Notes under the pieces: generated by a model | Told to the model about the DNA's origin: nothing | Databases searched by the model: none | Seen by the model: the letters and a program-made list of their open reading frames with translations, nothing else | DNA from: a virus | Lineage: Duplodnaviria; Heunggongvirae; Uroviricota; Caudoviricetes | Direction: 5' to 3' (one strand) | Virus record (IMG/VR): IMGVR_UViG_2634166457_000023 | Coordinates: 1 to 12,765 of that record | Length of the DNA stretch: 12,765 nucleotides | Position numbers and translations under genes: made by a program | Shown here: piece by piece, positions 1-12,765 of the stretch | How the letters are laid out: every line of letters begins with the position of its first letter | How positions within the stretch are numbered: the first letter of the stretch is position 1

Positions 1-1119
1 TCAAATAACCAACTTAACCCATTCCTGACCTCGAGTATCGTTATAGCGATCGGTGGTTGCCTGGACTTTATGTCCTAGTAATGTTTTTGTATCGATACCC
101 TGTGCACGGTACAGCCGTTCTGATAGAGAGCGTTGTTCATGAAATGTTGGCGGAGTTTTTCCTGCTGGTGGAATTATCCCAGCCAGATCCCGTGCTTTGG
201 CAAAGTAGTCGCTCAGGTTGTCTTTACTCATCGGCTTTGGTTGTTTCTGGTGCCGACTATGGATTAGATATGGACTTAATATTCGGTCTCGGCACCCATC
301 AATAACTTCTTTTAACGTTATCCCAATGGCATCACAGCGTAGTGTAAGCGGTAACGCCAGACGCATTCCGGTTTTTCCCTGGGTGATATGCAAGTGTTCG
401 TTCCACACATCTGAAAAACGCATGTGGCAAATGTCATCACGGCGCTGACCAGTAACAATCGCAAGAAGCATTGCGTTACGGATAAAGTGTTTTTCAGGCG
501 TTGCGTTGTAAATTTTTTGCCAGTCTTCCAGGGGGAGCCTGGCTCTGGTTACTTTAGGGATCGGTTTACGGGTAGCCTCCGGAGGATTCCATCCAGGAGG
601 AACTTCCCCTGCATGCTGTGCTTCTTTATAAATATCAACCCATAATCCGCGATTTACTCTCGCTGTGCTGACCATGTCTTTATCCAGCCACTCATCCAGT
701 ATTAATGCAAAGTCTCTTACTTCCAGTTCTTTCAATGGGTGGTTTCCCAGACGGGAAACCAGGTATGCAGCCATTCGAGTTTTTTCTTTGTGAGTTGTAG
801 CTGCAATATCTCCATTTTTCAGTCGCGTGTCCTGTATTTTCAGATATCGATCAACCCATGCCTTTAATCTGATACCCCGACGTTTTGTTGCTGACGGACT
901 TTCATCAATTTTGCGCATGAAATATTCAGCTTCTGCTGCAGCTATTCGCTGATTGGCTGTGGAAGCGATTTTTTCTGCCTTACCTTTGTCTGTTCCGAGT
1001 CCGTGAAATTTTCCAGTCACAGGATTTTTATACTGGTAGTAAACTCTGCCAGTTCTGCGATCAAACTTTTCGTAAAGACCGGCTACGTCAGTGCTGTTTT
1101 TTCGTGGCCTCGGTGACAT
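1..1119 (-). CDS. int: Tyrosine recombinase, lambda-family integrase (372 aa, complete)
   Basis: Full ORF. N-terminal YYQYKNPVTGKFHGLG arm-binding-like segment; catalytic-domain motifs LLAIVTGQRRDDI, PPTFHEQRSLSERLY and LLGHK...TTDRY. These align by eye with lambda Int as I recall it. Confidence 0.9.
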   Translation of the reverse strand: MSPRPRKNSTDVAGLYEKFDRRTGRVYYQYKNPVTGKFHGLGTDKGKAEKIASTANQRIAAAEAEYFMRKIDESPSATKRRGIRLKAWVDRYLKIQDTRLKNGDIAATTHKEKTRMAAYLVSRLGNHPLKELEVRDFALILDEWLDKDMVSTARVNRGLWVDIYKEAQHAGEVPPGWNPPEATRKPIPKVTRARLPLEDWQKIYNATPEKHFIRNAMLLAIVTGQRRDDICHMRFSDVWNEHLHITQGKTGMRLALPLTLRCDAIGITLKEVIDGCRDRILSPYLIHSRHQKQPKPMSKDNLSDYFAKARDLAGIIPPAGKTPPTFHEQRSLSERLYRAQGIDTKTLLGHKVQATTDRYNDTRGQEWVKLVI

Positions 1120-1357
1120 GAGTTAAAATCTCCTTCAGTGTATCATCATCGCCAGTATGAATTTCCGGCGCAATTCCCGTTTCACCAGGTCCAACAAATA
1201 CTGCTCGGCGATCTATCAGCCAACGCCCACGAATTTTTTGTGGTCTTGGAACGATGTATCCTAGTTTTCCGTATTTCACCAGGGTAGTGTTTGTTATTGG
1301 GAGACTGAACCGTTTTGGCTTCCACTCATCGAGCGTTATCAGGTACTGTTCGCTCAT
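1088..1357 (-). CDS. xis: Excisionase-like protein (Xis), 89 aa
   Basis: Small ORF directly upstream of int, overlapping it by 32 bp as in lambda xis-int. ATG at 1357 preceded by GGAG at about 8 nt. Segment LITLDEWKPKRFSLP...RGRWLIDRRAV resembles the lambda Xis N-terminus. The track start at 1366 is a GTG 9 nt further upstream. Confidence 0.65.
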   Translation of the reverse strand: MSEQYLITLDEWKPKRFSLPITNTTLVKYGKLGYIVPRPQKIRGRWLIDRRAVFVGPGETGIAPEIHTGDDDTLKEILTHVTEATKKQH

Positions 1358-1375
1358 GGCTATCACTCCGGAACG

Positions 1376-1407
1376 CGCCAGTTGCAGAATACCAACGACA
1401 ACTGGCG
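1376..1407. other. Inverted repeat CGCCAGTTG / CAACTGGCG (9-bp arms, 14-nt loop) in the exo-xis intergenic spacer
   Basis: Perfect 9-bp inverted repeat read directly at 1376-1384 and 1399-1407. No U-run follows on either strand. Confidence 0.4.
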
Positions 1408-1418
1408 ACGGTTGAACA

Positions 1419-3815
1419 TTAAAAATCAGCCTGACTCGGGATCAGTTTTTGCCAGATAGCTGAAACGTATTTTGCCTGGTAACGAGCGTCATCAAGTGCA
1501 TTATGGCGCTCACCTTCGAATGGGATAGCCGTTCTGGCATCGAAGTCTATGGCTTTCCCCAGCTCAACGATTGTGCATACATCGCGATCGTTGTGGTAGT
1601 GCCAGGGGCAGGGGATACCCTGTCGTTCGTATGAACGGCGTAAAATCACGTTGTCGAAGTTGGCTCCATTTCCCCAGACCTGAACAAAAAATTCACCGGA
1701 GTTTTCGGCGATAAATTCACGCAATTGCAGTAGTGCATCATCTAACGGGATTTCATCGGTCAGAATGGCAGATTGCGCCTCGCGTGATTGCTTAAGCCAC
1801 CATTTAATGGTGTCACGATCAATGACTCCGCCAGCTGTTTCCAGATCGATGGTCTTACTAAATTCCGGTCCCATATCTCCGGTTTGCGGATCGAAAAATA
1901 TTGCACCTATTGAGATAATTGGGGCATCGGGATTTTTTCCCATCGTTTCAAGGTCGATCATCAGATGAATACCCGCTCTGCTGGTGGATGTACTTTCATG
2001 ATGACCGTTCACCTTAATTGGGTGATCTGCCGCCTCGCCAGTTTCATTATCGCTGGCGTGATACTGATCACCGCCAGCGTCCTCCTTATGAAGATGTTCA
2101 TTGCCTTCCATTTCCTCCGGATTTTTTTCCTGAGATTCAGCCTGATTTTCTCCATTGAATGTTTCCTGGTATGTTGTGTTGCCCATTACCGCACCACAAT
2201 CAGGGCAGCTACCCCCGCCAGCCTGACCGCAGGCGGTACAAACTTTTCCTTCTTCCGGTTCGCTGTTCTGATGCAGTTTTTCTTCTGTCTGCTGTTCATC
2301 ATTTTCCGTTTTTTTAACTTCATTTGAGGGGATGTGATGACCGGGAATCCATTTCGGATCATTCGGGTCGCTAATCCCTTCAACGAACTCACCACGTGAT
2401 GCTGCCAGTAATTTGTCCGCATCGATCGGAGTTTTGGGCGGAATGTTTTTTCTGGCTTCGTGGAGTTCTGCCCGCAGTTCCTGGTATTTCGCATCAACAG
2501 AATTTACCTGTGGCTGAGCATCTATCGACGGTGTGTCCTGATGATGTTCAGTTGCATCCGGTTCCACTGCTTCAGGCGTTGTCTGTTCATTTGCCATTGC
2601 GCCAGATGGTTGCAGTTTTTCTTCATCATCCTGTTTTCCTTCTTCTGTTACACGCTGCGGCATCGGGGCAGAGGATCGACCGCAGGCAATATCCACGATT
2701 TCCGGATCAGGGTTGGCATGATCGGTTTCAGTAAGTACCTTGTTCAGATATTCAGTGACATGCGCAGGGATGACCTCGATACCAATTGGTGCTTCTTTCA
2801 CGGATGCAACCACGATGGCGCGGGAATAATCCAGCCCGCCAGGCATGGTGATGAATTTGTCGCGGAAAACAGAAAAGGGCGGTTTATTTTCAGCGATAAT
2901 TTCCTCGACACGTTTAGCGTGTGCAGGATGAAGGTTATAGATGTCCACGTCCATTGAACGGGCCAGTACGCCAGTGGCTACGTCGCGTGCCAGTGATGCC
3001 TGATCGTGGATGAAACCGTCGCCGCGATCGGTAAGGTTCCCGCCGCCAGCATTAGCACCGGAAGCCGTGCGGGTGATACGCGAAACACGATTCCCTTTCA
3101 TCCACTCTTTTGTCAGCAGACCGCGATCGGTGTAGTCAGCGTCCAGGTATGCTTCGATAAAAGCGGTCATCATCCCAAAATCTGAATTTTTCGGATTAGG
3201 GAAAACTTTGTCAGTATCACGCACCAGTTTGTGGAGGTCGCGAATTTCCAGCGGGTCGAGCAGGCTGGTTTTGTGGGAAACAGCCAGGGCAGTAACTGCC
3301 GGTAGTTCTTCATCTCGTGCAATGTGTAATGTCTGGAGTTCGTCGCGTGAAACGTGCGTTACTGGTTTTTCGCTGCCGTGTTGAGCAAGCCAACGAATGG
3401 GCAGTTCCTGACCGGAAACAGGCAGGAGCATGCTCTCCTCAATCTCAGTCATGTCTTCGCCGTTGACGTTGGTATTGTCAGTGCTTGCTGGTTTGTCCTG
3501 AACAGAGGGGGAAGGGCCGATAAATGTCATTGTGATGCCATCTTTCCCGCCTTTTTCATAGCGGTTGCAGAATTCCGTATCAAACACGCCTTCTGGCGGG
3601 AGGTCATCAACAACGGGCAAATTGACGCGGACGGGTTTTTTAAAGTCGTCTTCATCATAATCGTTGTCATCCATTGCGGTAATGCAGCGGGAGATTGCAA
3701 CAGATAATTTTTTTGCTGTAGTCCAGTAAAAACCACCTTTAATTCCCAGGCGTTTTCTTACTTTGTCATTTTTTGCTTCGCAATATAGTGCAAATTCTTC
3801 TTTATCAGTGCTCAT
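1419..3815 (-). CDS. Exodeoxyribonuclease VIII-like protein (798 aa): RecE-like N-terminal region, acidic/Cys-containing linker, C-terminal DEDDh (DnaQ-like) 3'-5' exonuclease domain
   Basis: N-terminal approx 400 aa resemble the non-catalytic N-terminus of E. coli RecE from memory ([12 protein letters not shown]...[21 protein letters not shown]...). The C-terminal approx 190 aa (coords approx 1419-1990) carry DEDDh motifs: IDLETMG (Exo I), [12 protein letters not shown] (Exo II), [13 protein letters not shown] (Exo III). A CTAC...CPDC pair sits in the linker near 2195-2245. Confidence 0.85.
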
Positions 3816-3908
3816 TATTGATAAACCTCATCACAGATTTAAGGGTGAACAAATCTCTGCCATTGCTGACATATAAGAATGAAACTGGATGTTTATTACT
3901 GTGCTGTT

Positions 3909-4100
3909 TTAAAATCCTGCCGGGATTTCGTTATTATCCTGGTGAATAACTTTATCGACCGGATAACAGTTGCCTGGAATTTTCTGTTCGGTTGCTGCTG
4001 CCATACATTCCTGCATTGTTCTGTGAATACTGACTGCAATATCAACTGGCTCTCCGGAAACAAGAAAAATCGTCAGAATAAGTGCAAATACTGGATTCAT
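3909..4100 (-). CDS. ydfD: YdfD-like small membrane/lysis protein (63 aa)
   Basis: ATG at 4100 overlaps the upstream stop (ATGA). AAAGGA lies 8 nt upstream. N-terminal hydrophobic helix MNPVFALILTIFLVSG. Size and position after dicB match Qin ydfD from memory. Confidence 0.6.
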   Translation of the reverse strand: MNPVFALILTIFLVSGEPVDIAVSIHRTMQECMAAATEQKIPGNCYPVDKVIHQDNNEIPAGF

Positions 4101-4285
4101 TGTGCACATCCTTTTGGCATCAGACGTAAACGGGCCAGCATTGAAACAATGCATACTTTATTTAATAACTCCCGTTCGTGTTTTCTTTTGTTAATGGCCT
4201 CTTCAGTAAATACAGGATTACTGATAGTGACACCAATTTCAAAAAAACCTTCAGACGTATTAACGTTTGGTAATAACATTTTCAT
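4097..4285 (-). CDS. dicB: Cell-division inhibitor DicB (62 aa)
   Basis: Product MKMLLPNVNTSEGFFEIGVTISNPVFTEEAINKRKHERELLNKVCIVSMLARLRLMPKGCAQ closely matches my recollection of E. coli DicB. GAGGG lies 7 nt upstream of the ATG at 4285. Lies immediately downstream of the DicF-like sequence. Confidence 0.75.
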   Translation of the reverse strand: MKMLLPNVNTSEGFFEIGVTISNPVFTEEAINKRKHERELLNKVCIVSMLARLRLMPKGCAQ

Positions 4286-4454
4286 TATCGCGCCCTCAAC
4301 AATGAGTTTTGTGATGCGGTGCCTGGTGCCTCCAGGTGACGTTAACCAGTTAACAATTAACGCCGGATATAGAGAATCCACCCATAACACTGTTTTTGGT
4401 TTTAACTGTTCCGCGTGCGCTCAGCCGCATTCACCGCATCACAAAATTCACTTT

Positions 4455-4512
4455 AAAAAGGGCGGTAGAGCAGTCACGGAGTAAAACTGATACCGCCAAA
4501 CGTCACCAGAAA
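4455..4512 (-). ncRNA. dicF: DicF small RNA (antisense inhibitor of ftsZ translation), with 3' terminator-like hairpin and U-run
   Basis: Minus-strand sequence UUUCUGGUGACGUUUGGCGGUAUCAGUUUUACUCCGUGACUGCUCUACCGCCCUUUUU matches my memory of E. coli DicF almost base for base. It ends in a GGCGGUA...UACCGCC stem plus U5. Located upstream of dicB as in Qin. Confidence 0.75.
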
Positions 4513-4846
4513 ATTGATAACAGAGGGCGTTGCAGCGGGGTTGTCACTTAAGCGTATGGTCAACCTGACAACCCGGTGTCCTCAACGGGGAAGGAATAAC
4601 CCCGCCATACTTACCGCCGCGCCATTTCGCGGAGTGCCACAACCGGAAGCGCACGGTCGACGAAAATTTAACGACAGGCTGTCTATGAACCAGCTACCTC
4701 GCCGTGCGCTTTCGCGTTATGGTCTGACTTTTCAGGGAAATATCCTTTCAGTAAACTGTCAGTGCCGGATGCTCACCCGTGTCCGGCGCACGCACTCCAC
4801 CTCACCCGTGGAGAACTCCTTAATCACCAACCCTCAGGAGGGTGAA

Positions 4847-5122
4847 ATGTCGACTGAAAATGATGAAATCATTAACTCCCTGATACGCCAGATTAATAAT
4901 TTTGATAAAGCATTGCAGCATGCTGCGGCGCGTAGTGATATAACTCTTTTAGCAATTTCATTTCTTGCATCTGTTATGGATAAAAATGAAGTCGTACGAC
5001 AGAGTCTTGTTGATTATATCGACTCGCTTCAACCCGGCACTTTCAATCATGAGAGCTTCAATCATGAGAAAGAGCATGTTAAATCTGTAATTAATTCTCT
5101 TGTTTTGAATCAAAAGAATTAA
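4847..5122 (+). CDS. Hypothetical protein (91 aa), AT-rich cargo gene convergent with the leftward operon
   Basis: ATG at 4847 preceded by GGAGG with a 5-nt spacer. Product looks helical with an in-frame FNHES/FNHEK repeat. Marked drop in GC relative to flanks. The upstream part of track ORF 4514..5122 is Arg-rich and treated as non-coding. Confidence 0.5.
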   Translation: MSTENDEIINSLIRQINNFDKALQHAAARSDITLLAISFLASVMDKNEVVRQSLVDYIDSLQPGTFNHESFNHEKEHVKSVINSLVLNQKN

Positions 5123-5420
5123 TGCTTTTTGTTGCAAAGTAATTTTCAAGGGGGTCTATTCGAATCCCTTTCTTTTTCATTAACAAGCCAAACCCCTTAT
5201 CAATGATGTCCATTAATTCCAGGAAGTATTTTTCATGTAAATCCTGGTTATCAGAGAGCTGCTTCTCTTCGTACAGCCCGATAAAGGCACGACGCACGTT
5301 ACCGGATATAGTATCGATGGTTTCTTTTTCTACGGTACTAAGGTCAAGAGTCGCCAGTTGAGAACGAACTATATTCGATGCCATTTCTTGGAATGGTATT
5401 GGTAAATCTTTAAATTCCAT
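5091..5420 (-). CDS. Hypothetical protein (109 aa), AT-rich cargo gene in the leftward operon
   Basis: ATG at 5420 preceded by GAGG at 6 nt. Protein-like composition with no family recognised. Its 3' end overlaps the convergent gene at 4847-5122 by 32 bp. Confidence 0.55.
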   Translation of the reverse strand: MEFKDLPIPFQEMASNIVRSQLATLDLSTVEKETIDTISGNVRRAFIGLYEEKQLSDNQDLHEKYFLELMDIIDKGFGLLMKKKGIRIDPLENYFATKSINSFDSKQEN

Positions 5421-5455
5421 CGTCAACCTCATCAGTCAGTTATTCACTCGGATAC

Positions 5456-5662
5456 TTAACCATTCTGGCAACATTTAATGCCGCCGCTTCTGTCAGGCTG
5501 GCGATGCTCTGGTCCAGTTCGGCCATTTTTTTTGGCCTGTAGCGTCTTGGAATCATTGACCCATTTCAGGTCCTGCGCAGCCTTAACTTTTTGTTTCATC
5601 CACTCATAAATCTCATCATCGGTATAGCCTGGTGCGATGATGATGGGTTCTGGTTTCTGCAT
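5456..5662 (-). CDS. ydfC: YdfC-like small protein (68 aa as read); probably frame-disrupted at an A8 tract
   Basis: ATG at 5662 with GAGGAA RBS. After the homopolymer (plus T8 at 5526-5533) the read frame encodes low-complexity NGRTGPEHRQPDRSGG, while the neighbouring frame encodes helix-like MAELDQSIASLTEAAALNVARMVKYPSE ending at 5440. Position after ydfB matches Qin ydfC. Confidence 0.5.
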   Translation of the reverse strand: MQKPEPIIIAPGYTDDEIYEWMKQKVKAAQDLKWVNDSKTLQAKKNGRTGPEHRQPDRSGGIKCCQNG

Positions 5663-5691
5663 AATGATTCCTCGCGGTGCTGTTTCGCTTA

Positions 5692-5820
5692 TTAGCCGTT
5701 AGATTTTGCCGAACTGGAAAGCGCCTCTTTAAACTCACTAAAGCTGAGAGCGTCTTCGCCTTCGGCAAGGCCTTCGAAGTATTCTTCGTAAGCCTTTTCC
5801 ATGATTGCGTCGAAATCCAT
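5692..5820 (-). CDS. ydfB: YdfB-like small acidic protein (42 aa)
   Basis: ORF below the track threshold, found by hand: MDFDAIMEKAYEEYFEGLAEGEDALSFSEFKEALSSSAKSNG. Strong AGGTGA RBS. Lies between the YdfA-like and YdfC-like genes. The track ORF 5616..5825 is in a different frame. Confidence 0.55.
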   Translation of the reverse strand: MDFDAIMEKAYEEYFEGLAEGEDALSFSEFKEALSSSAKSNG

Positions 5821-5821
5821 A

Positions 5822-5977
5822 TCACTCACCTGAGTTTCTTTCCAGCCAGCGACGCGCGCCAGATTCGGTTTTAAACGTGGTGCTTTTGGTATACGTCATC
5901 GCGGTGAACGTACCGTCCTGGTTTGGGAACACGCCGCACACCAGAGATTCGTTGTTGCCAAGATCGATAGTATCCAT
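5822..5977 (-). CDS. ydfA: YdfA/YdaF-like small protein (51 aa, DUF1391-like)
   Basis: Hand-found ORF MDTIDLGNNESLVCGVFPNQDGTFTAMTYTKSTTFKTESGARRWLERNSGE. GAGG RBS 7 nt upstream. First gene downstream of the PL-like promoter. Family assignment is from memory. Confidence 0.6.
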   Translation of the reverse strand: MDTIDLGNNESLVCGVFPNQDGTFTAMTYTKSTTFKTESGARRWLERNSGE

Positions 5978-6149
5978 GCTGACCTCATTTCCCCTTAACG
6001 CCGGGGTAGCGGAACAAAAACCTGCTGCATAGTTAAAAGTTGAACCCCGCCGTCACTTTCGAATGCCTCGGGCTGGCTACATTGACCCCTGACCACTGCC
6101 TGGTAACTCGAAGTATTGCCCGGCGTTCTGTGGGGCGGGGTGGGTTGGT

Positions 6150-6200
6150 ATCTTTAGTTTAATAAACATTAAACTTAAGTCAAGCAAAAACTAAACCGCG
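6150..6200 (-). promoter_or_regulatory. OL/PL-like operator-promoter for the leftward early operon
   Basis: Minus-strand -35 TTGACT (plus 6178-6183) flanked by half-sites TTTAGT (6153-6158) and ACTAAA (6190-6195). The 11-mer GTTTAATAAAC is the exact reverse complement of GTTTATTAAAC in the OR region. Confidence 0.5.
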
Positions 6201-6214
6201 GGGCGTAACAAACA

Positions 6215-6237
6215 CAACGCTTTTGATAAAGTCGTTG
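6215..6237 (-). terminator. Weak terminator-like hairpin (CAACG...CGTTG) downstream of the toxin gene
   Basis: 5-bp inverted repeat 6215-6219 / 6233-6237 with a 13-nt loop, followed on the minus strand by UGUUUGUU. Sits between the toxin stop (6268) and the PL region. Confidence 0.25.
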
Positions 6238-6267
6238 CGGTTGTTATGTTTCTATTGGTAGTGAAAG

Positions 6268-6546
6268 TTAGGGAAACTGGCGTCTTGCGTGGATCACGTT
6301 TACTACTTCAACGCTTGATGTTGTTACGCGGTATAGAATTATATAGTTAGGGTGGGCCACAATCTCACGCAAGCCAGGTACTCTGTCGCTTGGTGGGTAT
6401 AAATACGGATGTTCGGATAATGGCAGCACACAACCCCTTAATCGCTGCCATAAGCGTTCAGCCGCATCTATGTCGAAACGAGCAATATAACTAGTTATAT
6501 CATCTAGGTCGGTATCTGCGCTTTCAAGCCATAACACGGGTAACAT
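6268..6546 (-). CDS. parE: ParE-family toxin (92 aa), ParE2-like, of a three-gene repressor-antitoxin-toxin operon
   Basis: C-terminal LREIVAHPNYIILYRV...VEVVNVIHARRQFP is typical of ParE/RelE-fold toxins. ATG at 6546 lies 1 nt after the antitoxin stop. The track start at 6642 is rejected. Confidence 0.8.
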   Translation of the reverse strand: MLPVLWLESADTDLDDITSYIARFDIDAAERLWQRLRGCVLPLSEHPYLYPPSDRVPGLREIVAHPNYIILYRVTTSSVEVVNVIHARRQFP

Positions 6547-6547
6547 T

Positions 6548-6739
6548 TTACTGCTTGCTCCGTTCCTTCCGCATTTTAGCAAAGCGTTCTGCCATTCTGC
6601 GCTCAACTTCGTCATGGGGAATTGCTGGGCGCGGATCTGCAAGGCTCGTTGCTACTTTCGCACGCAGCCATTCGTTGTAACTGTTTTCTTGTTCAATGGT
6701 TTCAAATTCAGAAACCATTGGTGAAAGGGCTCTATTCAT
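6548..6739 (-). CDS. Small antitoxin (63 aa), PaaA-like partner of the ParE toxin
   Basis: ATG at 6739 preceded by GGAGGA at 5 nt. Size and position match the PaaA-type antitoxins of paaR-paaA-parE operons described in E. coli O157 prophages (from memory). Starts 20 nt after the repressor stop. Confidence 0.65.
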   Translation of the reverse strand: MNRALSPMVSEFETIEQENSYNEWLRAKVATSLADPRPAIPHDEVERRMAERFAKMRKERSKQ

Positions 6740-6759
6740 GTTTCCTCCGGTTTTATAAC

Positions 6760-7131
6760 TCAGGCGCGGCGGCATTTTTGCGCCGCAATCCATCTCGCTA
6801 TGAGATCTTCCATTGATTCTTTTTTCTGCTTTAACTCGTTGATTATCTGGCGTTGCTCATCCTCAGGGAAGGCTGAAAAAATCTGCAATAATTCCAGTTG
6901 ATTAGACGTTAACCCTGCATGTGGTGGAGAAACCTCCGGTTGTTCTGCGTATTCCGCATCCAGATACCCTTCCGGCATCCCGTATGTTTGCTCTATTCTT
7001 CTGGCAGCCTTTTCTCCAAACGAGGCTCTCCCACTCATTAGTTGAGATAGGTAGCTCTTCTCTTTGGGTGGCAGAGTTTTATCTTTAAACCACTCCTTGA
7101 GACGTAAACGGCGAATTTCTTTTTTTTGCAT
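6760..7131 (-). CDS. HTH (XRE-type) prophage repressor, CI/DicA-like, lacking a peptidase S24 domain (123 aa); possibly also the PaaR-type regulator
   Basis: N-terminal HTH KEKSYLSQLMSGRASFGEKAARRIEQTYGMP. C-terminal LTSNQLELLQIFSAFPEDEQ resembles DicA as I recall it. Divergent from the cro-like gene. ATG at 7131 has no SD but sits 6 nt after a GATAAT -10, so likely leaderless like lambda cI. The track GTG start at 7194 is rejected. Confidence 0.75.
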   Translation of the reverse strand: MQKKEIRRLRLKEWFKDKTLPPKEKSYLSQLMSGRASFGEKAARRIEQTYGMPEGYLDAEYAEQPEVSPPHAGLTSNQLELLQIFSAFPEDEQRQIINELKQKKESMEDLIARWIAAQKCRRA

Positions 7132-7137
7132 GTGGTA

Positions 7138-7220
7138 ATTATCTTTAGTAATCACTAAACAAGCAAATACTTGACTTAATGGTTTATTAAACACTAAACT
7201 CGCAAAAAAACACTAAACCG
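7138..7220. promoter_or_regulatory. OR-like region with back-to-back divergent promoters (PRM-like leftward, PR-like rightward) and three ACTAAA operator half-site positions
   Basis: Palindrome TTTAGTaatcACTAAA at 7144-7159 sits in the spacer of the PRM-like promoter (-35 TTGCTT as plus 7161-7166, -10 GATAAT as plus 7138-7143). PR-like -35 TTGACT at 7171-7176 with -10 near 7194-7200. ACTAAA recurs at 7193-7198 and 7212-7217. Confidence 0.55.
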
Positions 7221-7228
7221 AGGAAGGT

Positions 7229-7531
7229 ATGACATTAAAAGAGTTTATTAAATCATTGAGGGTTGGTGATGCTAAGAAATTCGCGGCCAGACTAGGTGTA
7301 TCGCCATCTTACTTATCGCAAATGGCGTCTGGACGAGCAGCTATATCTCCAACCCGCGCCCTTATGATCGAATCTGCGACGGAAGGCCAAGTAAGTAGGG
7401 CGGAGCTACGACCCCATGATTGGGAGCTTATTTGGCCTGAGTATGCGAGCGGCATTCGTTTGGGGCAAACGCATGTAGTTCATGCTGAAGGTGATTGTAG
7501 AGCATGCTTATCTGATGGAGTTGATTCATGA
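7229..7531 (+). CDS. ydaS: Cro-like HTH protein, YdaS family (100 aa)
   Basis: GAGGAAGG RBS. HTH AKKFAARLGVSPSYLSQMASG and ELRPHDWELIWPE motif typical of YdaS-type proteins. First gene of the rightward operon. Confidence 0.75.
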   Translation: MTLKEFIKSLRVGDAKKFAARLGVSPSYLSQMASGRAAISPTRALMIESATEGQVSRAELRPHDWELIWPEYASGIRLGQTHVVHAEGDCRACLSDGVDS

Positions 7532-7953
7532 AAATCAAGCATGAACACATCCGCATGGCGATGAATGCCTGGGCGCATCCTGATGGCGAAAAAGTACCGG
7601 CTGCGAAAATTACCAAAGCGTATTTCGAACTGGGAATGACGTTCCCGGAACTGTATGACGACAGCCATCCCGAAGCCCTGGCTCGCAATACCCAGAAAAT
7701 TTTCCGCTGGGTAGAGAAAGATACCCCTGATGCTGTTGAAAAAATTCAGGCGTTGTTACCTGCGATCGAAAAGGCAATGCCGCCTCTGCTGGTGGCCCGA
7801 ATGCGCAGTCACAGTTCAGCCTATTTTCGGGAACTGCTGGAGACGCGGGAGCGGCTGGTGAGGGATGCAGATGATTTTATTGCGGTGGCAATTACTGGTT
7901 TCAACCAGATTAATCGCGGTGGCCCGGCAGGAAATGCCGTGGTGATGCACTAA
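7528..7953 (+). CDS. ydaT: YdaT-family protein (141 aa), CII-like position
   Basis: ATGA overlap with the ydaS-like stop. Size and position match Rac YdaT. Family assignment is from memory. Confidence 0.7.
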   Translation: MKIKHEHIRMAMNAWAHPDGEKVPAAKITKAYFELGMTFPELYDDSHPEALARNTQKIFRWVEKDTPDAVEKIQALLPAIEKAMPPLLVARMRSHSSAYFRELLETRERLVRDADDFIAVAITGFNQINRGGPAGNAVVMH

Positions 7954-7976
7954 AAGCACGGTGTTCGGGGTTTTTT

Positions 7977-8909
7977 ATGAGCAGCAAGCTTCATGGTCTT
8001 GTCTGGGAAGGGTGCGCCTTCACCGGCATGATCTTATCCAGGGTGGCAGTGATGGCTCGTCTTGCAGACTACAGCAATGATGAAGGTGTGTCATGGCCTG
8101 CAGTAGAGACCATTCGTCGTCAGATTGGGGCAAAGAGTGAATCAACGGTTAAAGCGGCGATAGCGGAACTGGAAAAGAGCGGCTGGCTGACAAAGGAAGA
8201 GCGTAAGGTTGGTGGACGTAACGTAAGCAATATCTACCGGCTTAATGTGGAAAAACTCGAAGCTGCAGCAGCGGCAGCGCGAGAGGCATATAAACCGAAA
8301 AGAAAAATTAGCCCGGCAAAAAATGACCCGTTAACGGTTGACCCGTCAAATTTTGATGGATCAACCGTTGATAAAAAACGGTCGGTTAGGGGGGCGATGA
8401 TTGACCCCGATCCGTCAGTATTAAAATCTGATCCGTCAGATAAAAGATCTTCTTGTCCGGACGCTTCGCAACCGGACCCGCAGACGGCTGAACAGGATTT
8501 TTTAACCCGACACCCTGACGCGGTTGTGTTCAGTGCGAAAAAACGCCAGTGGGGAAGTCAGGAAGATTTGGCGTGCGCACAGTGGATCTGGGGACGAATC
8601 GTGAGTCTTTACGAGCAGGCAGCCAGCGATGATGGCGAGATCACTCGACCGAAAGAACCAAACTGGACCGCGTGGGCCAATGACGTGCGCACAATGCGGA
8701 TGCTGGATGGCAGAACTCACAGACAAATTTGCGAAATGTTTGGGCGGGTACAGCGGGATCCATTCTGGGTAAAAAACATCATGAGCCCGTCAAAGCTCCG
8801 CGAAAAATGGGACGAACTGGTCATCCGCCTGGGGCGTTCGCCTGTACAGCGTTGTGTGAATCACATTTCTGAACCGGACACCGAAATTCCACCGGGCTTC
8901 AGGGGGTAA
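7977..8909 (+). CDS. Phage replication initiation protein (310 aa): N-terminal HTH, repeat-rich middle, C-terminal DnaT-like region
   Basis: N-terminal VSWPAVETIRRQIGAKSESTVKAAIAELEKSGWL is typical of phage replication-initiator HTH domains. The middle encodes DP/DPS peptide repeats over DNA iterons. Lies in the lambda O position. Confidence 0.7.
   Translation: MSSKLHGLVWEGCAFTGMILSRVAVMARLADYSNDEGVSWPAVETIRRQIGAKSESTVKAAIAELEKSGWLTKEERKVGGRNVSNIYRLNVEKLEAAAAAAREAYKPKRKISPAKNDPLTVDPSNFDGSTVDKKRSVRGAMIDPDPSVLKSDPSDKRSSCPDASQPDPQTAEQDFLTRHPDAVVFSAKKRQWGSQEDLACAQWIWGRIVSLYEQAASDDGEITRPKEPNWTAWANDVRTMRMLDGRTHRQICEMFGRVQRDPFWVKNIMSPSKLREKWDELVIRLGRSPVQRCVNHISEPDTEIPPGFRG
8325..8442. repeat. Iteron-like repeats and palindromes inside the replication gene (putative origin of replication)
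   Basis: Four copies of GAYCCGTYAR (8325-8337, 8340-8350, 8409-8420, 8430-8440). Palindromes CCGTTAACGG, TTGACCCGTCAA and ATCTGATCCGTCAGAT. A-rich tract just upstream at 8291-8324. Confidence 0.4.
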
Positions 8910-8949
8910 GTGTTTATTTCAGGTCATGAGGTAATTTTCAGGAGGACTT

Positions 8950-9369
8950 GTGGCAAAAGTTTTTACACAAGAAGAGCGGGAAAAAATTAAAGGGCAGGTT
9001 GTTGAACTCGTACGCCAGAGTGGGCGCGAGACGTTACGACAACTGGAAGCTAAAACCGGGGCAACAAGATATCTGATGAGCGTTCTGGCCAGAGAACTGG
9101 TTGCCAGTGGCGATGTATACAACTCCGGCTACGGGTTATTCCCGTCTGAACAGGCTCGTAAGGACTGGCAAAACGCCCGCAAAAAACTCTCGAGGGCAAA
9201 GCTGAAGAAACCATCTGTGGTTGATCCGGACCTTATCTGGTCATTACCAGACGGAGAGATACGTCGCTATGACAGACGTCTGAACATAATCTGTCGCGAG
9301 TGCCGGAAGAGTGAGGTTATGCAGCGAGTTTTGGTGTTTTACAGGGGTAATAACGGATCAACGATATGA
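8950..9369 (+). CDS. Hypothetical protein (139 aa), possible winged-helix N-terminus
   Basis: GTG start at 8950 with GGAGG 4 nt upstream. The stop overlaps the next start (ATGA). No family recognised. Confidence 0.55.
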   Translation: MAKVFTQEEREKIKGQVVELVRQSGRETLRQLEAKTGATRYLMSVLARELVASGDVYNSGYGLFPSEQARKDWQNARKKLSRAKLKKPSVVDPDLIWSLPDGEIRRYDRRLNIICRECRKSEVMQRVLVFYRGNNGSTI

Positions 9370-9659
9370 GGGTTTATATTGCAGGGCTGATGACCGGGTA
9401 TAAAAATTTCAACCGTGAGGCATTTCACAAGGCGGAAGAGGAGCTGAAGCGGGAAGGGTATACAGTCTTAAACCCGGCAGTACTTCCGGACGGGCTGACA
9501 CAGCCACACTACATGGATATCTGCATGGCAATGATTCGTTGTGTGGATGCGATTTACATGCTGAAAGGTTGGCAGCGGTCAGCAGGCGCTAAGGCAGAGC
9601 TGGCACTGGCGGAGAAGCTGGGGCATGCAGTTATTTTTCAGGAGGTAATCAGTGAGTGA
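9366..9659 (+). CDS. DUF4406-family protein (97 aa), nucleoside 2-deoxyribosyltransferase-like fold
   Basis: MRVYIAGLMTGYKNFNREAFHKAEEELKREGYTVLNPA...DAIYMLKGWQRSAGAKAELALAEKLG matches the DUF4406 pattern from memory. Confidence 0.75.
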   Translation: MRVYIAGLMTGYKNFNREAFHKAEEELKREGYTVLNPAVLPDGLTQPHYMDICMAMIRCVDAIYMLKGWQRSAGAKAELALAEKLGHAVIFQEVISE

Positions 9660-10069
9660 AATTAATTACCAGGCACTGCGTGTTGCAGGCATTTGCATCA
9701 AAGGAGAGTGACGTGGAAATAAAACCAGAAGATGAGTTAAGTAATATTGTTTTATTTCCTGTAAAAGAGGATGACCCGCGTAATCAGGTTAATTTTCTTT
9801 ATGAGCCATCGGAAAGACCATATTGCCATCACGCTTCTGTCCGGGTTGATGAAAAAGAGCGTCAGGTCCGATGCAAAATCTGCGGTGCGGTTGTGGAGCC
9901 ATTTGACTGGATGCTCTCTGTGGCGAAAAGAGAAACCAGACTGGCAGATGATGTAAGGCTCTTGCGCCAGGAGGAACGGGAAAGGCGGAAAAATATAGAA
10001 AAGTTAATTCAGATTGAGCGTAACGCGAAAGCGCGGATACGCAGGGCGACAAAATCCAGAACTGAATAA
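9656..10069 (+). CDS. Hypothetical Cys/His-containing protein with basic coiled-coil C-terminus (137 aa from GTG 9656; 118 aa if from GTG 9713)
   Basis: CHH...CKIC motif then a Arg/Glu-rich helical tail. GTG 9656 overlaps the upstream stop (GTGA), with GGAGG 10 nt upstream. Alternative GTG 9713 has AAGGAG at 6 nt. Confidence 0.55.
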   Translation: MKLITRHCVLQAFASKESDVEIKPEDELSNIVLFPVKEDDPRNQVNFLYEPSERPYCHHASVRVDEKERQVRCKICGAVVEPFDWMLSVAKRETRLADDVRLLRQEERERRKNIEKLIQIERNAKARIRRATKSRTE

Positions 10070-10161
10070 TTAAATTTAGTAGTGTTAAAAATTTAATCCT
10101 TAACCGGAGGGATTTCTGTACCCTCAGAACATCAGGAGGCAGCCCGAAAGGGCGGTAAGAA

Positions 10162-10380
10162 ATGGCTACATTATTCAGAAAAGAATATCTGCGAAGAAGC
10201 AGGGCTATAGAACTCTTGTTTCTCATTCTGTTTATCGTGTTGATGATACCGATATCCCCGTTAATTCTGGTATGGGGAATTGGGAAAATAATTGAGCCAG
10301 TTATTGAATTGTATACCGACGTTGTATGGGCGTCGTTCAACACACTGCACAACAAAATCAACCCATATAAGGAAAGCTGA
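10162..10380 (+). CDS. Small membrane protein (72 aa), one predicted transmembrane helix
   Basis: Hydrophobic stretch LLFLILFIVLMIPISPLILVWGIG. The next gene starts 1 nt after its stop. RBS region is structured (see hairpin finding). Confidence 0.5.
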   Translation: MATLFRKEYLRRSRAIELLFLILFIVLMIPISPLILVWGIGKIIEPVIELYTDVVWASFNTLHNKINPYKES

Positions 10381-10381
10381 T

Positions 10382-10747
10382 ATGGCACTGACGAAAAAAC
10401 AACGCGCAGAACTGCGCATGAAGTTCGGTGGTCGCTGCGCTTATTGCGGCTGCGAACTTGGCGAAAAGTGGCATGCAGACCATGTCAAACCGGTCATTCG
10501 TTTTGATGGAAATATGCTTCACCAGGAACGTGACGATATATCCAACATGGTTCCGGCATGCCACCCATGCAATCTGCACAAGCATTGCAGTAGCCTGGAA
10601 GATTATCGGCGAATTATCAGTGATGGTCGTCGTGAATTCCTTGCGTCCGGGAAAGGCAAAGCGCTGGTTCGTATGGGATTGGTTGAAATGAAATCTGACC
10701 CGGTTGTGTTCTGGTTTGAAAAATATCAAGAAGGGGCTACAGCATGA
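10382..10747 (+). CDS. HNH endonuclease (121 aa)
   Basis: [20 protein letters not shown] ... [10 protein letters not shown]: Cys pairs around an H-N-H core. AAGGAAA RBS. The track start at 10292 is rejected as a non-coding extension. Confidence 0.8.
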
Positions 10748-11091
10748 CCACTTTTACCAGAGAGCAGTTAATAGCTCACGCAGAGGAGACTATTGAAGCA
10801 CAGAGACTGTGCATACCGGGCACAATCGACCATGACATCATCCGCACATATAAGATGGATATTGCTGTTCTGGAAATCGCACTGGCATCGCTGGCAGCAG
10901 AGCCAGCCGGTAAATTGCATGAATACAAACCAGTGGGATATCAGCGTCTGGTCGATGAGTTAACCATGCTGGTAAAGCAGTTAACCTGGCAACTGAGGAA
11001 AGCGAAGTCAGACTGCAAATTACCGGATAAGGCGATGAGTTATCTGGAGCGGAACGGACTGATAAGCGTGGAAGATGATATTTTACGATGA
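10744..11091 (+). CDS. Hypothetical phage protein (115 aa)
   Basis: ATGA overlap with the HNH stop. Protein-like composition with no family recognised. Confidence 0.55.
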
Positions 11092-11171
11092 CCTGGCCTG
11101 AGGCATTCACAACGGTAGGAATTGCAATGGCGGTGGCGCTGGTGGTGTATTCGATTTGCCGCTGGGGATAA
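11088..11171 (+). CDS. Possible tiny hydrophobic peptide (27 aa)
   Basis: [31 protein letters not shown] overlap with the upstream stop. Ends just before a terminator-like hairpin. Below normal gene-calling thresholds. Confidence 0.3.
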
Positions 11172-11181
11172 ATCGCCGAAA

Positions 11182-11215
11182 AAAGATCCCGACACAAACA
11201 TGAGCCGGGATCTTT
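11182..11215. terminator. Bidirectional terminator-like hairpin between convergent transcription units
   Basis: 10-bp perfect inverted repeat AAAGATCCCG / CGGGATCTTT with a 14-nt loop. T/A-rich flanks give a U-run on either strand. Lies between the rightward operon end (11171) and the convergent ParE gene end (11296). Confidence 0.45.
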
Positions 11216-11295
11216 GATTTATATAGCCTACGAATCCGCCAGTAAGAGAGGGGGCGGACGGTTTATTCTAACACCGGAATGATGTGGGTAAAAGT

Positions 11296-11595
11296 TTATA
11301 AGAAATCGGTTTCATAACTTTGCCCACCATGATAGATACCGACAATAAAGACTTTTCTGCCATCAACGGCAAAAGCAATAATCGTTCTGTGGCGGAAATG
11401 AGTTACCCGCATCCCCTGGCGAATATCATCGCGTTTATTGCCCCGATGCGGGAATGTAGAAAACCCATCAAGATAATCAAGAAGCGCATTGGCATAATTG
11501 TCAGCAATGACGTTCCCTGCTTTCTCCGTTATATATCTGTGCAGGTTGATTATTTGTTGTTCGGCCTCAGGAGTAATGATGACTTCATATGTCAT
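11296..11595 (-). CDS. parE: ParE/RelE-family toxin (99 aa)
   Basis: Size, composition and position (start 5 nt after the stop of a ribbon-helix-helix antitoxin) are typical of ParE. C-terminal RKVFIVGIYHGGQ-type strand motif. Confidence 0.8.
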   Translation of the reverse strand: MTYEVIITPEAEQQIINLHRYITEKAGNVIADNYANALLDYLDGFSTFPHRGNKRDDIRQGMRVTHFRHRTIIAFAVDGRKVFIVGIYHGGQSYETDFL

Positions 11596-11600
11596 GCAGA

Positions 11601-11858
11601 TTACTTCCCGGATCGAATCGCGGCGCGAACCTGTGAAATGGAGCGTCCGTTGTTTGGATTTTCACGGATAGAATCAAGAGAGGGGGCGGCTGAATGCGTT
11701 AACCACGCTTCGATTGCTTTATCGCGCTCATTCAGTGCGCGAAGCCCTTCACGAATGACCTCGCTTTCTGAAGCATAGGCACCGGAAGCCACACGGGCGC
11801 GCACCATGTCAGCCATCTCGTTAGTTAATGTAATGCTGAATTGTTGGGTTGTACGCAT
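11601..11858 (-). CDS. parD: ParD-family antitoxin, ribbon-helix-helix (85 aa)
   Basis: FSITLTNEMADMVRARVASGAYASESEVIREGLRAL is a classic ParD/RHH signature. ATG at 11858 with GTGAGG RBS. The track start at 11921 is rejected. Confidence 0.8.
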   Translation of the reverse strand: MRTTQQFSITLTNEMADMVRARVASGAYASESEVIREGLRALNERDKAIEAWLTHSAAPSLDSIRENPNNGRSISQVRAAIRSGK

Positions 11859-11886
11859 GGTAAACCTCACGGAGTAGGATAGAACA

Positions 11887-11924
11887 CTATTCGATGATAG
11901 CACGCTGCCTGTTGACGACAACAG
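11887..11924 (-). promoter_or_regulatory. Putative parDE promoter with palindromic operator
   Basis: Minus-strand -35 TTGTCG (plus 11916-11921), 16-nt spacer, -10 TATCAT (plus 11894-11899). The 16-bp palindrome CTGTTGacgaCAACAG (11909-11924) overlaps the -35. Confidence 0.4.
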
Positions 11925-11993
11925 AAATCAGAGACAATATTGCCGCACGCCAGCCTGAACAACTGGCACCTGCTGCGCCAGCAGAGAAAACAG

Positions 11994-12272
11994 ATGGCGC
12001 ACAAGACCAAATTACACAATTCTGATAATTCAGCCGCCTTTGCCAGCAGGCACGGGCGGCGTTCTCATGCATTCAAATATGACTGGTACCAGCATGACCC
12101 ATGCACTGAAGAACAGGCAGAGTGGCTGATTCAGAACTACCGCAGACGTGGTTACGAGTTTCAGAAAGACCTCAGTCTTGACTTCCGACACTGGATAATT
12201 TCAGTCAGGCTCCCTTATTCCGAACGCCCACCGCGTCCGTCCCGCACATTCCAGCAACGGATCTGGAGGTAA
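11994..12272 (+). CDS. Hypothetical protein (92 aa from ATG 11994)
   Basis: ORF with a weak RBS. The track start at 11940 is a TTG. Its stop is followed by GGAGG and the next ORF start. No family recognised. Confidence 0.4.
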   Translation: MAHKTKLHNSDNSAAFASRHGRRSHAFKYDWYQHDPCTEEQAEWLIQNYRRRGYEFQKDLSLDFRHWIISVRLPYSERPPRPSRTFQQRIWR

Positions 12273-12273
12273 C

Positions 12274-12765
12274 GTGCGGGTATTGCTTCGACCTGTTCTG
12301 GTACCGGAACTCGGGCTGGTGGTCCTTAAGCCGGGCCGTGAGTCCATGCAGGTATTTCATAATCACCGGGTGCTGGTGGAGTCAGAACCGAAAAGCATGC
12401 TCGGTCTGCCGTCCGGAGTCGTCCCTGCCGTTCGCCAGCCGCTGGCGGAGGATAAATCATTACTGCCATTTTTCAGCAATGAGCGTGTGATTCGTGCTGC
12501 TGGCGGCGCTGGCGCACTGTCTGACTGGCTCTTGCGTCATGTTAAATCCTGCCAGTGGCCTCATGGTGATTATCACCACAGCGAAACCGTCATACATCGT
12601 TACGGTACCGGCGCGATGGTGTTGTGCTGGCACTGCGACAACCAGCTGCGTGACCAGACATCCGAATCACTCGGGCAACTTGCTCATCAAAACCTGTCAG
12701 CATGGATGATTGACGTCATACGCTATGCAATGAATGGCACACAGGAGCGTGAATTATCGCTGGCT
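12274..12765 (+). CDS. Hypothetical Cys/His-rich phage protein, 3'-truncated by the window edge (possibly DUF968-like)
   Basis: Frame open from GTG 12274 (GGAGG 4 nt upstream) to the window end. Alternative ATG at 12346. Motifs CQWPHGDYHH and CWHCDNQ suggest metal binding. Family guess is low confidence. Confidence 0.5.
   Translation, partial: MRVLLRPVLVPELGLVVLKPGRESMQVFHNHRVLVESEPKSMLGLPSGVVPAVRQPLAEDKSLLPFFSNERVIRAAGGAGALSDWLLRHVKSCQWPHGDYHHSETVIHRYGTGAMVLCWHCDNQLRDQTSESLGQLAHQNLSAWMIDVIRYAMNGTQERELSLA

Follow-up and report, generated by a model that had tools for sequence, protein, structure and literature searches.

An accessory slot for alternative opposite-strand genes in the dicBF operon of a Qin-like prophage

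The window analyzed here, a 12,765-nucleotide stretch of caudovirus DNA (IMG/VR record IMGVR_UViG_2634166457_000023, positions 1 to 12,765), contains the early-left part of a lambdoid prophage of the Qin type, with a dicBF operon on its minus strand. We found that the part of this operon between a ydfC-like gene and the small RNA (sRNA) gene dicF is a polymorphic accessory locus, which by sequence comparison is a recombination-prone slot containing two interlocked but separable genes: ORF109, an open reading frame (ORF) for a 109-amino-acid protein that is a codirectional member of the operon, and ORF91, a gene for a 91-amino-acid protein that opposes it. At least five alternative opposite-strand cargo genes occupy the slot in different prophages, and the allelic series that four of them form on one shared translation start is a new feature. 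The opposite-strand gene in an early-left operon, forming an excludon-type pair with its neighbor, is an architecture already known in prophages. We favor, with moderate confidence, a model that places an accessory slot of a Qin/Rac/e14-type prophage here, within its early-left dicBF operon, and has ORF91 and the operon expressed mutually exclusively, as a convergent excludon.

ORF91 runs on the plus strand from an ATG at 4847 to a stop codon at 5122 and corresponds to a WP_000102679-type 'hypothetical protein' of the Prokaryotic Genome Annotation Pipeline. ORF109, on the minus strand, runs from an ATG at 5420 to a stop codon at 5091 (an alternative in-frame ATG at 5432 would yield a protein of 113 amino acids) and is the shorter form of a commoner 124-amino-acid protein of the phrog_6937 family. 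The 3′ ends of the two genes overlap over 5091–5122, which is 32 nt. As read from the sequence, the Shine–Dalgarno (SD) element of ORF91 is AGGAGGG at 4836–4842, 4 nt ahead of the ATG, and that of ORF109 is GAGG at 5430–5427, 6 nt ahead of the ATG. A first-pass annotation, made by a model from the letters of the window without database searches, had reported both ORFs with their ribosome-binding sites, their overlap, the opposition of the plus-strand gene to the operon and the AT-richness of the segment, all of which held on closer analysis, and both ORFs proved to be real genes. GC content is 0.38 at 4833–5437, compared with 0.55 in the dicF leader (4512–4832), 0.49 from ydfC to ydfA (5438–6015) and 0.476 in the whole window, and ORFs of at least 91 amino acids on both strands arose by chance in 0.06% of 5,000 Markov-1 randomizations of positions 4801–5480.

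Comparison by blastn with the Qin prophage of Escherichia coli K-12 (L002), in which window positions 3824–4832 (95% identity) and 5438–6015 (88%) aligned, delimited a 605-nt segment at 4833–5437 that has no K-12 counterpart and is represented there by 15 nt. The bounds of this indel agree almost exactly with those the first-pass annotation had given, and K-12 Qin carries neither ORF109 nor ORF91. The operon backbone is otherwise alike in the two prophages, comprising ydfA, ydfB, a ydfC-like gene, a leader of ~320 nt (95% identical), DicF, dicB and ydfD, and the window differs in adding ORF109, ORF91 and, upstream, a RelE/ParE-type pair, and in having a frameshifted ydfC. The first-pass statement that ydfC directly precedes dicF in K-12 was right in that no gene lies between them, but a 340-nt untranslated leader does, and this leader is conserved in the window at 4512–4832 on the minus strand, with its antisense strand forming the upstream region of ORF91. 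The DicF leader holds the RNase III and RNase E sites that free DicF from the polycistronic dicBp transcript (PMC5069750; PMC10448788). DicF itself lies at 4460–4511 on the minus strand (Rfam RF00039, 74.1 bits, E = 3.5e-15) and was the sole match in the Rfam search, which returned no other RNA family.

The two genes had been proposed to form one two-gene cassette, and in this respect the proposal did not survive comparison with other prophages. In an O111 prophage (L003), homology to the window picks up again at 5101, a 124-amino-acid minus-strand gene abuts the leader, and there is no plus-strand ORF. Junction alignments together with blastn against this prophage placed ORF91 in a separate 290-nt block (4811–5100), in place of which prophages with the 124-amino-acid gene alone have 61 nt. 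The minus-strand gene is widespread, and in its 124-amino-acid form it stands without a partner not only in the O111 prophage but in 30 IMG/VR loci. Among 5,426 complete E. coli genomes, the scope of all genome counts given below, at least part of ORF109 matched in 1,562 and the 290-nt block in 198, as a single copy. We rejected an origin of this block as a mobile element or miniature inverted-repeat transposable element because no genome has more than one copy of it and terminal repeats are lacking. Presence/absence polymorphism at the ydfC–dicF junction is seen in the lack of the segment in K-12 Qin and in these counts. Insertion into a conserved operon, the event that had been envisaged, is not established by them. 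Because the two 'empty' alleles, the K-12 type and the 124-amino-acid-only type, differ in their breakpoints and because four cargo types share one SD and ATG, the segment is no less likely to have been lost from K-12 than to have been gained in this prophage.

Junction alignments with loci carrying ORF73 (L053 and L069), ORF77 (L007) or ORF92 (L088–L090) revealed a conserved translation-initiation region at 4815–4849 on the plus strand (…CTCCTTAATCACCAACCCTCAGGAGGGTGAA-ATG). Four unrelated-looking cargo ORFs, namely ORF91, ORF73, ORF77 and ORF92, start on the same …CTCCTTAATTACCAACCCTCAGGAGGGTGAA-ATG and diverge from one another straight after the ATG; K-12 shares the initiation region only to ~4832, and the SD is absent there. 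A fifth cargo gene, ORF100 (phrog_8894; 65 genomes), has its own, different leader and SD (L091) and adjoins a 122-amino-acid variant of the minus-strand gene. Of the four on the common start, ORF91 (198 genomes) adjoins the 109/106-amino-acid form of that gene, ORF73 (phrog_7249; 88 genomes) the 124-amino-acid form, ORF92 (phrog_18692; 126 genomes) a 133-amino-acid variant and ORF77 (phrog_10348; 650 genomes; present in O157:H7, O111 and O145) a 135-amino-acid variant. The slot is occupied in between 650 and ~1,100 of the complete genomes, O157:H7 among them. Neither ORF73 nor ORF77 showed any similarity to ORF91, and both were set aside as possible homologs.

Some of these alleles have peculiarities of their own. 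ORF92 is intact (92 amino acids) in locus L095 (1460–1738) and, judging from alignment lengths, probably in most of its 126 genomes; it carries a 1-nt frameshift in the L088–L090 lineage (~3558–3641), which is found at ≥99% identity in ~5 genomes. The ORF100 allele (L091, 3293–3595) has no annotated feature in six RefSeq records though it is a clear YmfI-family homolog. The 77-amino-acid product of ORF77 is called a 'dGTP triphosphohydrolase' in one public source, almost certainly an annotation error given its size.

Which plus-strand gene accompanies which minus-strand form could be followed in 80 IMG/VR loci. The 109/106-amino-acid form always occurred with ORF91 (45 loci), and the 124-amino-acid form occurred without any plus-strand ORF in 30 loci and with the unrelated ORF73 in the other 5. 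The minus-strand gene ending in the C-terminal module that we term type A therefore has three partner states, ORF91, ORF73 or none.

Sequence comparisons identify ORF91 as a genuine coding gene. It was unbroken in all 50 loci examined, which represent 13 nucleotide alleles in two clades, and its indel variants were all in frame. Relative to an 85%-identical allele it has 41 substitutions, no stop codon and a ratio of nonsynonymous to synonymous substitution rates (dN/dS) of 0.31. The other five frames all give higher ratios, and that of ORF109 (0.32) is similar. A 15-nt tandem duplication at 5042–5071 on the plus strand (repeat D2, encoding HESFN twice) varies from one to three copies among alleles, always in frame, with a single copy in variants P0004 and P0005 and three copies in a 96-amino-acid allele. 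Exact copies of the protein, invariably labeled 'hypothetical', occur on at least 1,000 contigs, which come from E. coli, E. albertii and Salmonella enterica. Among strains, RM8082 carries ORF91, and enterotoxigenic E. coli H10407 has it at 99% identity.

A plus-strand frame of 202 codons (4514–5122), in frame with ORF91, crosses the antisense strand of the GC-rich dicF leader, and RefSeq start calls for ORF91 disagree, giving either 91 amino acids or an extended form of 145 (e.g., WP_001317923 and WP_001387733). We rejected the 202-amino-acid ORF as a true gene because the extension is broken at varied points elsewhere (leaving 188, 145 or 117 amino acids) and because all cargo types diverge exactly at the ATG at 4847. 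Since it is interrupted at varying points in other loci, the upstream extension of ORF91 is probably non-coding.

The relatives of ORF91 are few. An exhaustive phmmer search against 1.84 billion representative proteins returned only its own fragments and one spurious match to a repeat protein, and a tblastn search of 50,697 phage records gave no match for either ORF91 or ORF92. Against phrog_18692, the family of ORF92, hmmscan aligned ORF91 end to end (9–88 against 6–89 of 92) with an E value of 0.018, and hhalign with an intact member, ORF92 (WP_000358771), gave an E value of 8e-4 and 31% identity over 78 columns at a probability of only 24%; blastp yielded no match between ORF91 and this family. 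The two proteins also agree in site, strand, length and SD-ATG. On these alignments ORF91 is probably a distant relative of the phrog_18692/ORF92 family, not a demonstrated member of it. The protein is acidic (isoelectric point 5.4), with a grand average of hydropathy of −0.31 and a maximum 19-residue Kyte–Doolittle score of 1.43; it contains no membrane segment and is predicted to be soluble and helical. A Pfam scan of ORF91 at E ≤ 1 found no family, and Pfam, NCBIfam and PHROG gave no sign of homology to SieB.

A full-length profile match (E = 1e-67, residues 1–107 against profile positions 1–107 of 124) places ORF109 in phrog_6937. This common gene of lambdoid early operons has 233–284 homologs in Escherichia and Salmonella, all of them 'hypothetical', and its family is often seen without ORF91. 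An alignment of these proteins (A1) and the PHROG domain splits resolved two parts. The N-terminal domain (residues 1–53, MEFKDLP…NVRRAFIGLYEEK; 5262–5420, minus strand) is a near-invariant block that is common to phrog_1363, phrog_2151 and phrog_9419 and that functional Stx phages, PA2 and ArgO145 among them, encode at 40–44% identity in their early regions. Some blastn matches are confined to the corresponding stretch of the window (5261–5435), and phage phi191 has the domain as a stand-alone protein of 52 amino acids. The variable C-terminal module, type A (5094–5261, minus strand), gives way to unrelated modules in relatives of 122, 133, 135 and 147 amino acids. The module of the 133-amino-acid form is 75% identical over 40 amino acids to the N terminus of YmfJ from prophage e14, and that of the 122-amino-acid form matches the YmfJ C terminus; YmfJ (e14 locus L096, 4998–5585) is itself a mosaic of these two module types. 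Small helical modules appear to be shuffled among the early genes of different prophages. The AlphaFold2 (AF2) model of ORF109 has three helices; its predicted local distance difference test (pLDDT) score is ~80 over the N-terminal half, and the tail (residues 94–109) is disordered, so that by this prediction the difference between the 109- and 124-amino-acid forms touches only the tail. We infer that ORF109 is probably an early host-interaction protein.

Neither protein falls in a characterized family, in line with the first-pass annotation, which had recognized none. Scans of ORF91, ORF109 and six other slot proteins with Pfam, NCBIfam and PADLOC found no known toxin, antitoxin or defense family, the sub-threshold noise including BrxA for ORF91 (E = 0.014, 12.8 bits) and a RelB-like match (E = 0.011); in PADLOC-DB v2, the BrxA noise was the best result for ORF91, and there was nothing for ORF109 or the other slot proteins. 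PDB profile searches with both proteins returned noise only, and Foldseek searches of the AF2 models against PDB and BFVD returned nothing at E ≤ 0.001, the sole real match being the 52-amino-acid phi191 homolog of the N-terminal domain. Not every Qin-like prophage has the two genes, their GC content is unlike that of the flanks, and no search placed them in a housekeeping phage family; universal core genes or a housekeeping assignment would have spoken against the first-pass reading. The resemblance to toxin–antitoxin systems is also poor: neither protein had a toxin or antitoxin match at or near threshold in Pfam, NCBIfam or PADLOC, the layout is convergent and ORF109-family genes often stand alone, unlike the co-transcribed gene pairs of type II systems with their obligate co-occurrence, and the products are soluble proteins of 91 and 109 amino acids with DicF as the only Rfam match, unlike the small hydrophobic peptides and overlapping antisense RNAs of type I.

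The closest known arrangements are in two other K-12 prophages. In e14, the order is ymfK (the repressor gene), ymfJ and, convergent with ymfJ, ymfI, with a 3′ overlap of 63 nt. YmfI is 56% identical to the slot occupant ORF100, which belongs to the YmfI family (NCBIfam E = 8e-32), and the modules that make up YmfJ are those at the C termini of the 133- and 122-amino-acid relatives of ORF109. The e14 locus differs in that YmfI is not similar to ORF91, YmfJ lacks the MEFKDLP N-terminal domain, no sRNA or division-inhibitor gene lies downstream, and the region upstream of ymfI has no relation to the common SD-ATG; the two e14 proteins, YmfI and YmfJ, are also uncharacterized. In Rac, racR, ydaG and ydaF are opposed by sieB, with a 3′ overlap of 4 nt, and followed by the kilS sRNA, kilR and recE. 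This order matches that of the window gene for gene, namely a repressor, small genes including a DUF1391 gene, an opposite-strand gene, an sRNA, a division inhibitor and an exonuclease, with kilS corresponding to DicF and kilR to dicB, and with sieB, like ORF91, upstream of a kil-type gene and inside the early-left operon. ORF91 differs from SieB in sequence and in being a soluble, acidic, helical protein of 91 amino acids with no membrane segment; SieB is a larger membrane protein. The upstream regions of sieB and ORF91 are likewise unrelated, and we found no upstream sequence that the slot shares with either Rac sieB or e14 ymfI.

Both K-12 pairs, ymfI–ymfJ and sieB–ydaF, are among 165 convergent excludons of E. 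coli MG1655 defined by RNA-seq, and for these two pairs transcription on both strands, with mutually exclusive expression or cleavage by RNase III, has been shown (PMC12288877); during the SOS response ymfJ rises ~16- to 28-fold at late times while ymfI changes little (PMC11002266). As in convergent excludons, the transcription units of ORF91 and ORF109 necessarily overlap: ORF91 lies wholly within the ydfA-to-dicF transcription unit, as that unit is defined for K-12, and a terminator scan found no minus-strand terminator between ORF109 and DicF. From this placement and the 3′ overlap with ORF109 we expect the pair to act as a convergent excludon. The slot also resembles lambdoid morons, which are extra genes with signals of their own, lodged between genes that adjoin in relatives. 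It does so in the presence/absence of a segment between ydfC and the dicF leader, in its base composition, which is unlike that of its neighbors, and in an orientation independent of the host operon. It differs from them in that the dedicated promoter and terminator of ORF91 are candidates only, with weak downstream hairpins, and in that the unit is an allelic series on one translation start that overlaps a neighboring gene, not a simple insertion.

We propose that ORF109 would be transcribed from dicBp together with ydfABC, DicF and dicB once a DicA-like repressor is lifted, and that ORF91 would be an independent opposite-strand gene with its own transcription, translated from its strong, conserved SD and ATG. 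In the repressed prophage only ORF91 would be transcribed, and its transcription would meet any leaky transcription from dicBp head-on before the latter reached the toxic dicF and dicB genes. Upon derepression, read-through of the operon would generate a full-length antisense RNA to ORF91, which would then be silenced by polymerase collision and by RNase III cleavage of the duplex. Our best guess for the protein, by analogy to the position of sieB, is that ORF91 may be a lysogen-expressed exclusion or host-modulating factor.

Candidate transcription signals for ORF91 lie on both sides of the gene. A candidate sigma-70 promoter on the plus strand at 4729–4757 (TTTTCA-17-TAAACT), within the antisense of the dicF leader, scored 10.2 bits with a position weight matrix (PWM), in the top 0.06% of window positions, and is conserved in every allele, that of K-12 and the divergent leader of L091 among them; a separate consensus scan did not report it. 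In K-12 this candidate maps to the minus strand near position 1,649,130 of NC_000913.3. A second candidate lies at 4350–4377 on the plus strand (TTAACA-16-GAGAAT, a 9-of-12 consensus match). Downstream, an AT-rich palindrome covers both stop codons (5090–5123; inverted repeat I1) and is followed on the plus strand by GCTTTTTGTTGC. It folds at −10 kcal/mol (z = −2.2) as plus-strand RNA and at −12.4 kcal/mol (z = −4.1), but without a U tract, as minus-strand RNA, and with its plus-strand U tract it may serve ORF91 as a weak terminator-like signal lying within ORF109. We rejected a GC-rich candidate for an intrinsic terminator after ORF91 (5148–5171) because it folds weakly (z = −1.1) and is also present in cargo-less alleles. 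As a separate observation, the promoter-like TTAACA-16-GAGAAT opposing the operon recurs at one conserved place between DicF and dicB in three loci (4350–4377 in the window, 2232–2205 in L095 and 5115–5088 in L007), where it would drive transcription antisense to DicF.

Several of these features, and some of those described above, weigh against the proposed mechanism. The promoter candidates are only modest, with ~0.2 sites of the 4729–4757 kind expected by chance in the 335-nt leader, and both sit in sequence that K-12 also has, without a cargo gene. The hairpin 3′ of ORF91 is AT-rich and weak. Plus-strand RNA from 4758 to 4850 folds very stably (−37.8 kcal/mol, z = −4.4) with the SD partly paired in a small hairpin, so translation of ORF91 may be restricted; alternatively, the fold may be a feature of the DicF leader on the sense strand, an RNase III substrate. 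The analogy to sieB is positional only, since ORF91 has neither similarity to SieB nor a membrane segment. The AF2 models are of low confidence (pLDDT 66 and 64) and have no fold match. Finally, every occurrence of ORF91 came with the type-A gene (198 genomes in each of two scans), which we attribute to physical linkage; dependence of one gene on the other is possible.

The last point is what a cognate two-gene module would predict, be it a toxin–antitoxin, toxin–immunity or two-component defense system in which the ORF109 C-terminal module and the opposite-strand protein interact and are exchanged as a pair. Unrelated C-terminal modules each come with their own opposite-strand ORF (the 135-amino-acid form with ORF77, the 133-amino-acid form with ORF92, the 122-amino-acid form with ORF100), a YmfJ-C-like module and a YmfI-like gene occur together in both e14 and L091, and a fixed N-terminal domain with polymorphic C-terminal domains recalls polymorphic toxin loci. 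We nevertheless think such a module improbable. The three partner states of the type-A module point to physical linkage and are not a pattern that a cognate toxin–antitoxin or defense pair would show, while ORF91 and its homolog ORF92 adjoin unrelated C-terminal modules. Moreover, convergent genes, one of them in a repressed operon, are not co-expressed from a single promoter, the toxin–antitoxin and defense profile scans gave only sub-threshold noise, and overlapping 3′ ends suffice to explain co-inheritance. A stand-alone moron for defense or superinfection exclusion, equipped with a promoter and terminator, incidental in orientation and without interplay with the operon, would account for the presence/absence polymorphism, for the AT-richness relative to the flanks and for the position of ORF91 at the site of sieB in Rac, and a slot with many unrelated small genes is reminiscent of the defense hot spots of P2 and P4 (PMC9122126). 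Set against this, ORF91 has no homology to known defense proteins, no convincing terminator insulates it from ORF109, interplay is hard to avoid with the whole gene inside the operon transcript, and the K-12 analogs are documented overlapping-transcript pairs. We therefore regard full independence from the operon as unlikely, while noting that this explanation and the excludon model overlap as to the role of the ORF91 protein.

The remaining alternative is that ORF91 is non-functional, the 290-nt block being a non-coding remnant or an antisense RNA and the frame fortuitous or recently dead. The family is narrow (Escherichia and Salmonella) and most copies are >97% identical, so the intactness of ORF91 could partly reflect recent ancestry; there is also no strong promoter, the frame stays open through the GC-rich antisense leader, which implies that long chance frames arise here, and one minority lineage has a frameshift in the related ORF92. 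Yet the frame is intact across 15% nucleotide divergence with the best dN/dS of the six frames, 50 of 50 loci are intact with every indel in frame, the near-consensus SD is optimally spaced and four independent cargo ORFs begin at its ATG, the protein is similar end to end to a separate PHROG family of equal length at the same site, and long ORFs on both strands were as rare in randomized sequence as noted above. These results make a non-functional ORF91 very improbable, and we retain the convergent excludon as the preferred explanation.

Around the slot, the order of minus-strand genes is that of a dicBF operon. A DicA-like repressor gene (7194–6760) is followed by the RelE/ParE-type pair (6793–6268), a dicBp-like promoter (6183–6156; TTGACT-16-TAAACT, PWM score 11.5 bits), ydfA (5977–5822), ydfB (5829–5692) and the ydfC-like gene (5662–5440), a divergent allele; distal to DicF are dicB, ydfD and a gene for a 798-amino-acid exonuclease. 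The RelE/ParE pair consists of a toxin gene and a small upstream gene, has no counterpart at this position in K-12 Qin, and has homologs in RM8082 that are annotated as a type II RelE/ParE toxin and a hypothetical protein. Compared with the 72-amino-acid YdfC of K-12 and RM8082, the ydfC-like gene seems frameshifted in a run of eight A residues (a plus-strand T8 at ~5526–5533), with its first ~40 residues in one frame and the conserved C terminus (…AAALNVARMVKYPSE) in another, and is either a pseudogene or the product of a homopolymer sequencing error.

Parts of the window region match in 4,597 of the 5,426 complete genomes, and dicBF-type prophages are found in most E. coli. DicF and DicB affect cell division, metabolism, phage resistance and the virulence of enterohemorrhagic E. 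coli (PMC5069750; PMC6832061; Melson and Kendall, 2019, cited via PMC10448788). By lying between the operon promoter and dicF and dicB, a variable gene on the opposite strand could make the silencing of these toxic genes stricter in some strains than in others. We entertain, as a bolder and rather doubtful extension, that the site before the DicF leader is an undescribed hot spot for lysogen-expressed small effectors, with ORF91 and ORF92 representing a new exclusion or anti-defense family and the ORF109 family a counter-measure. Were this so, at least five non-homologous genes would be exchanged there, four of them behind one fixed, structured SD-ATG and all antisense to a toxic operon; ORF91 and ORF92 would be small soluble proteins whose expression is hard-wired to be off when the prophage operon fires, and the polymorphic ORF109-family partner would be the matching early-phase counter-measure. 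The slot could in any case be a source of small uncharacterized lysogeny factors, its shared translation start is a natural design for swapping cargo genes at a fixed site, and it gives context to the unstudied K-12 genes ymfI and ymfJ.

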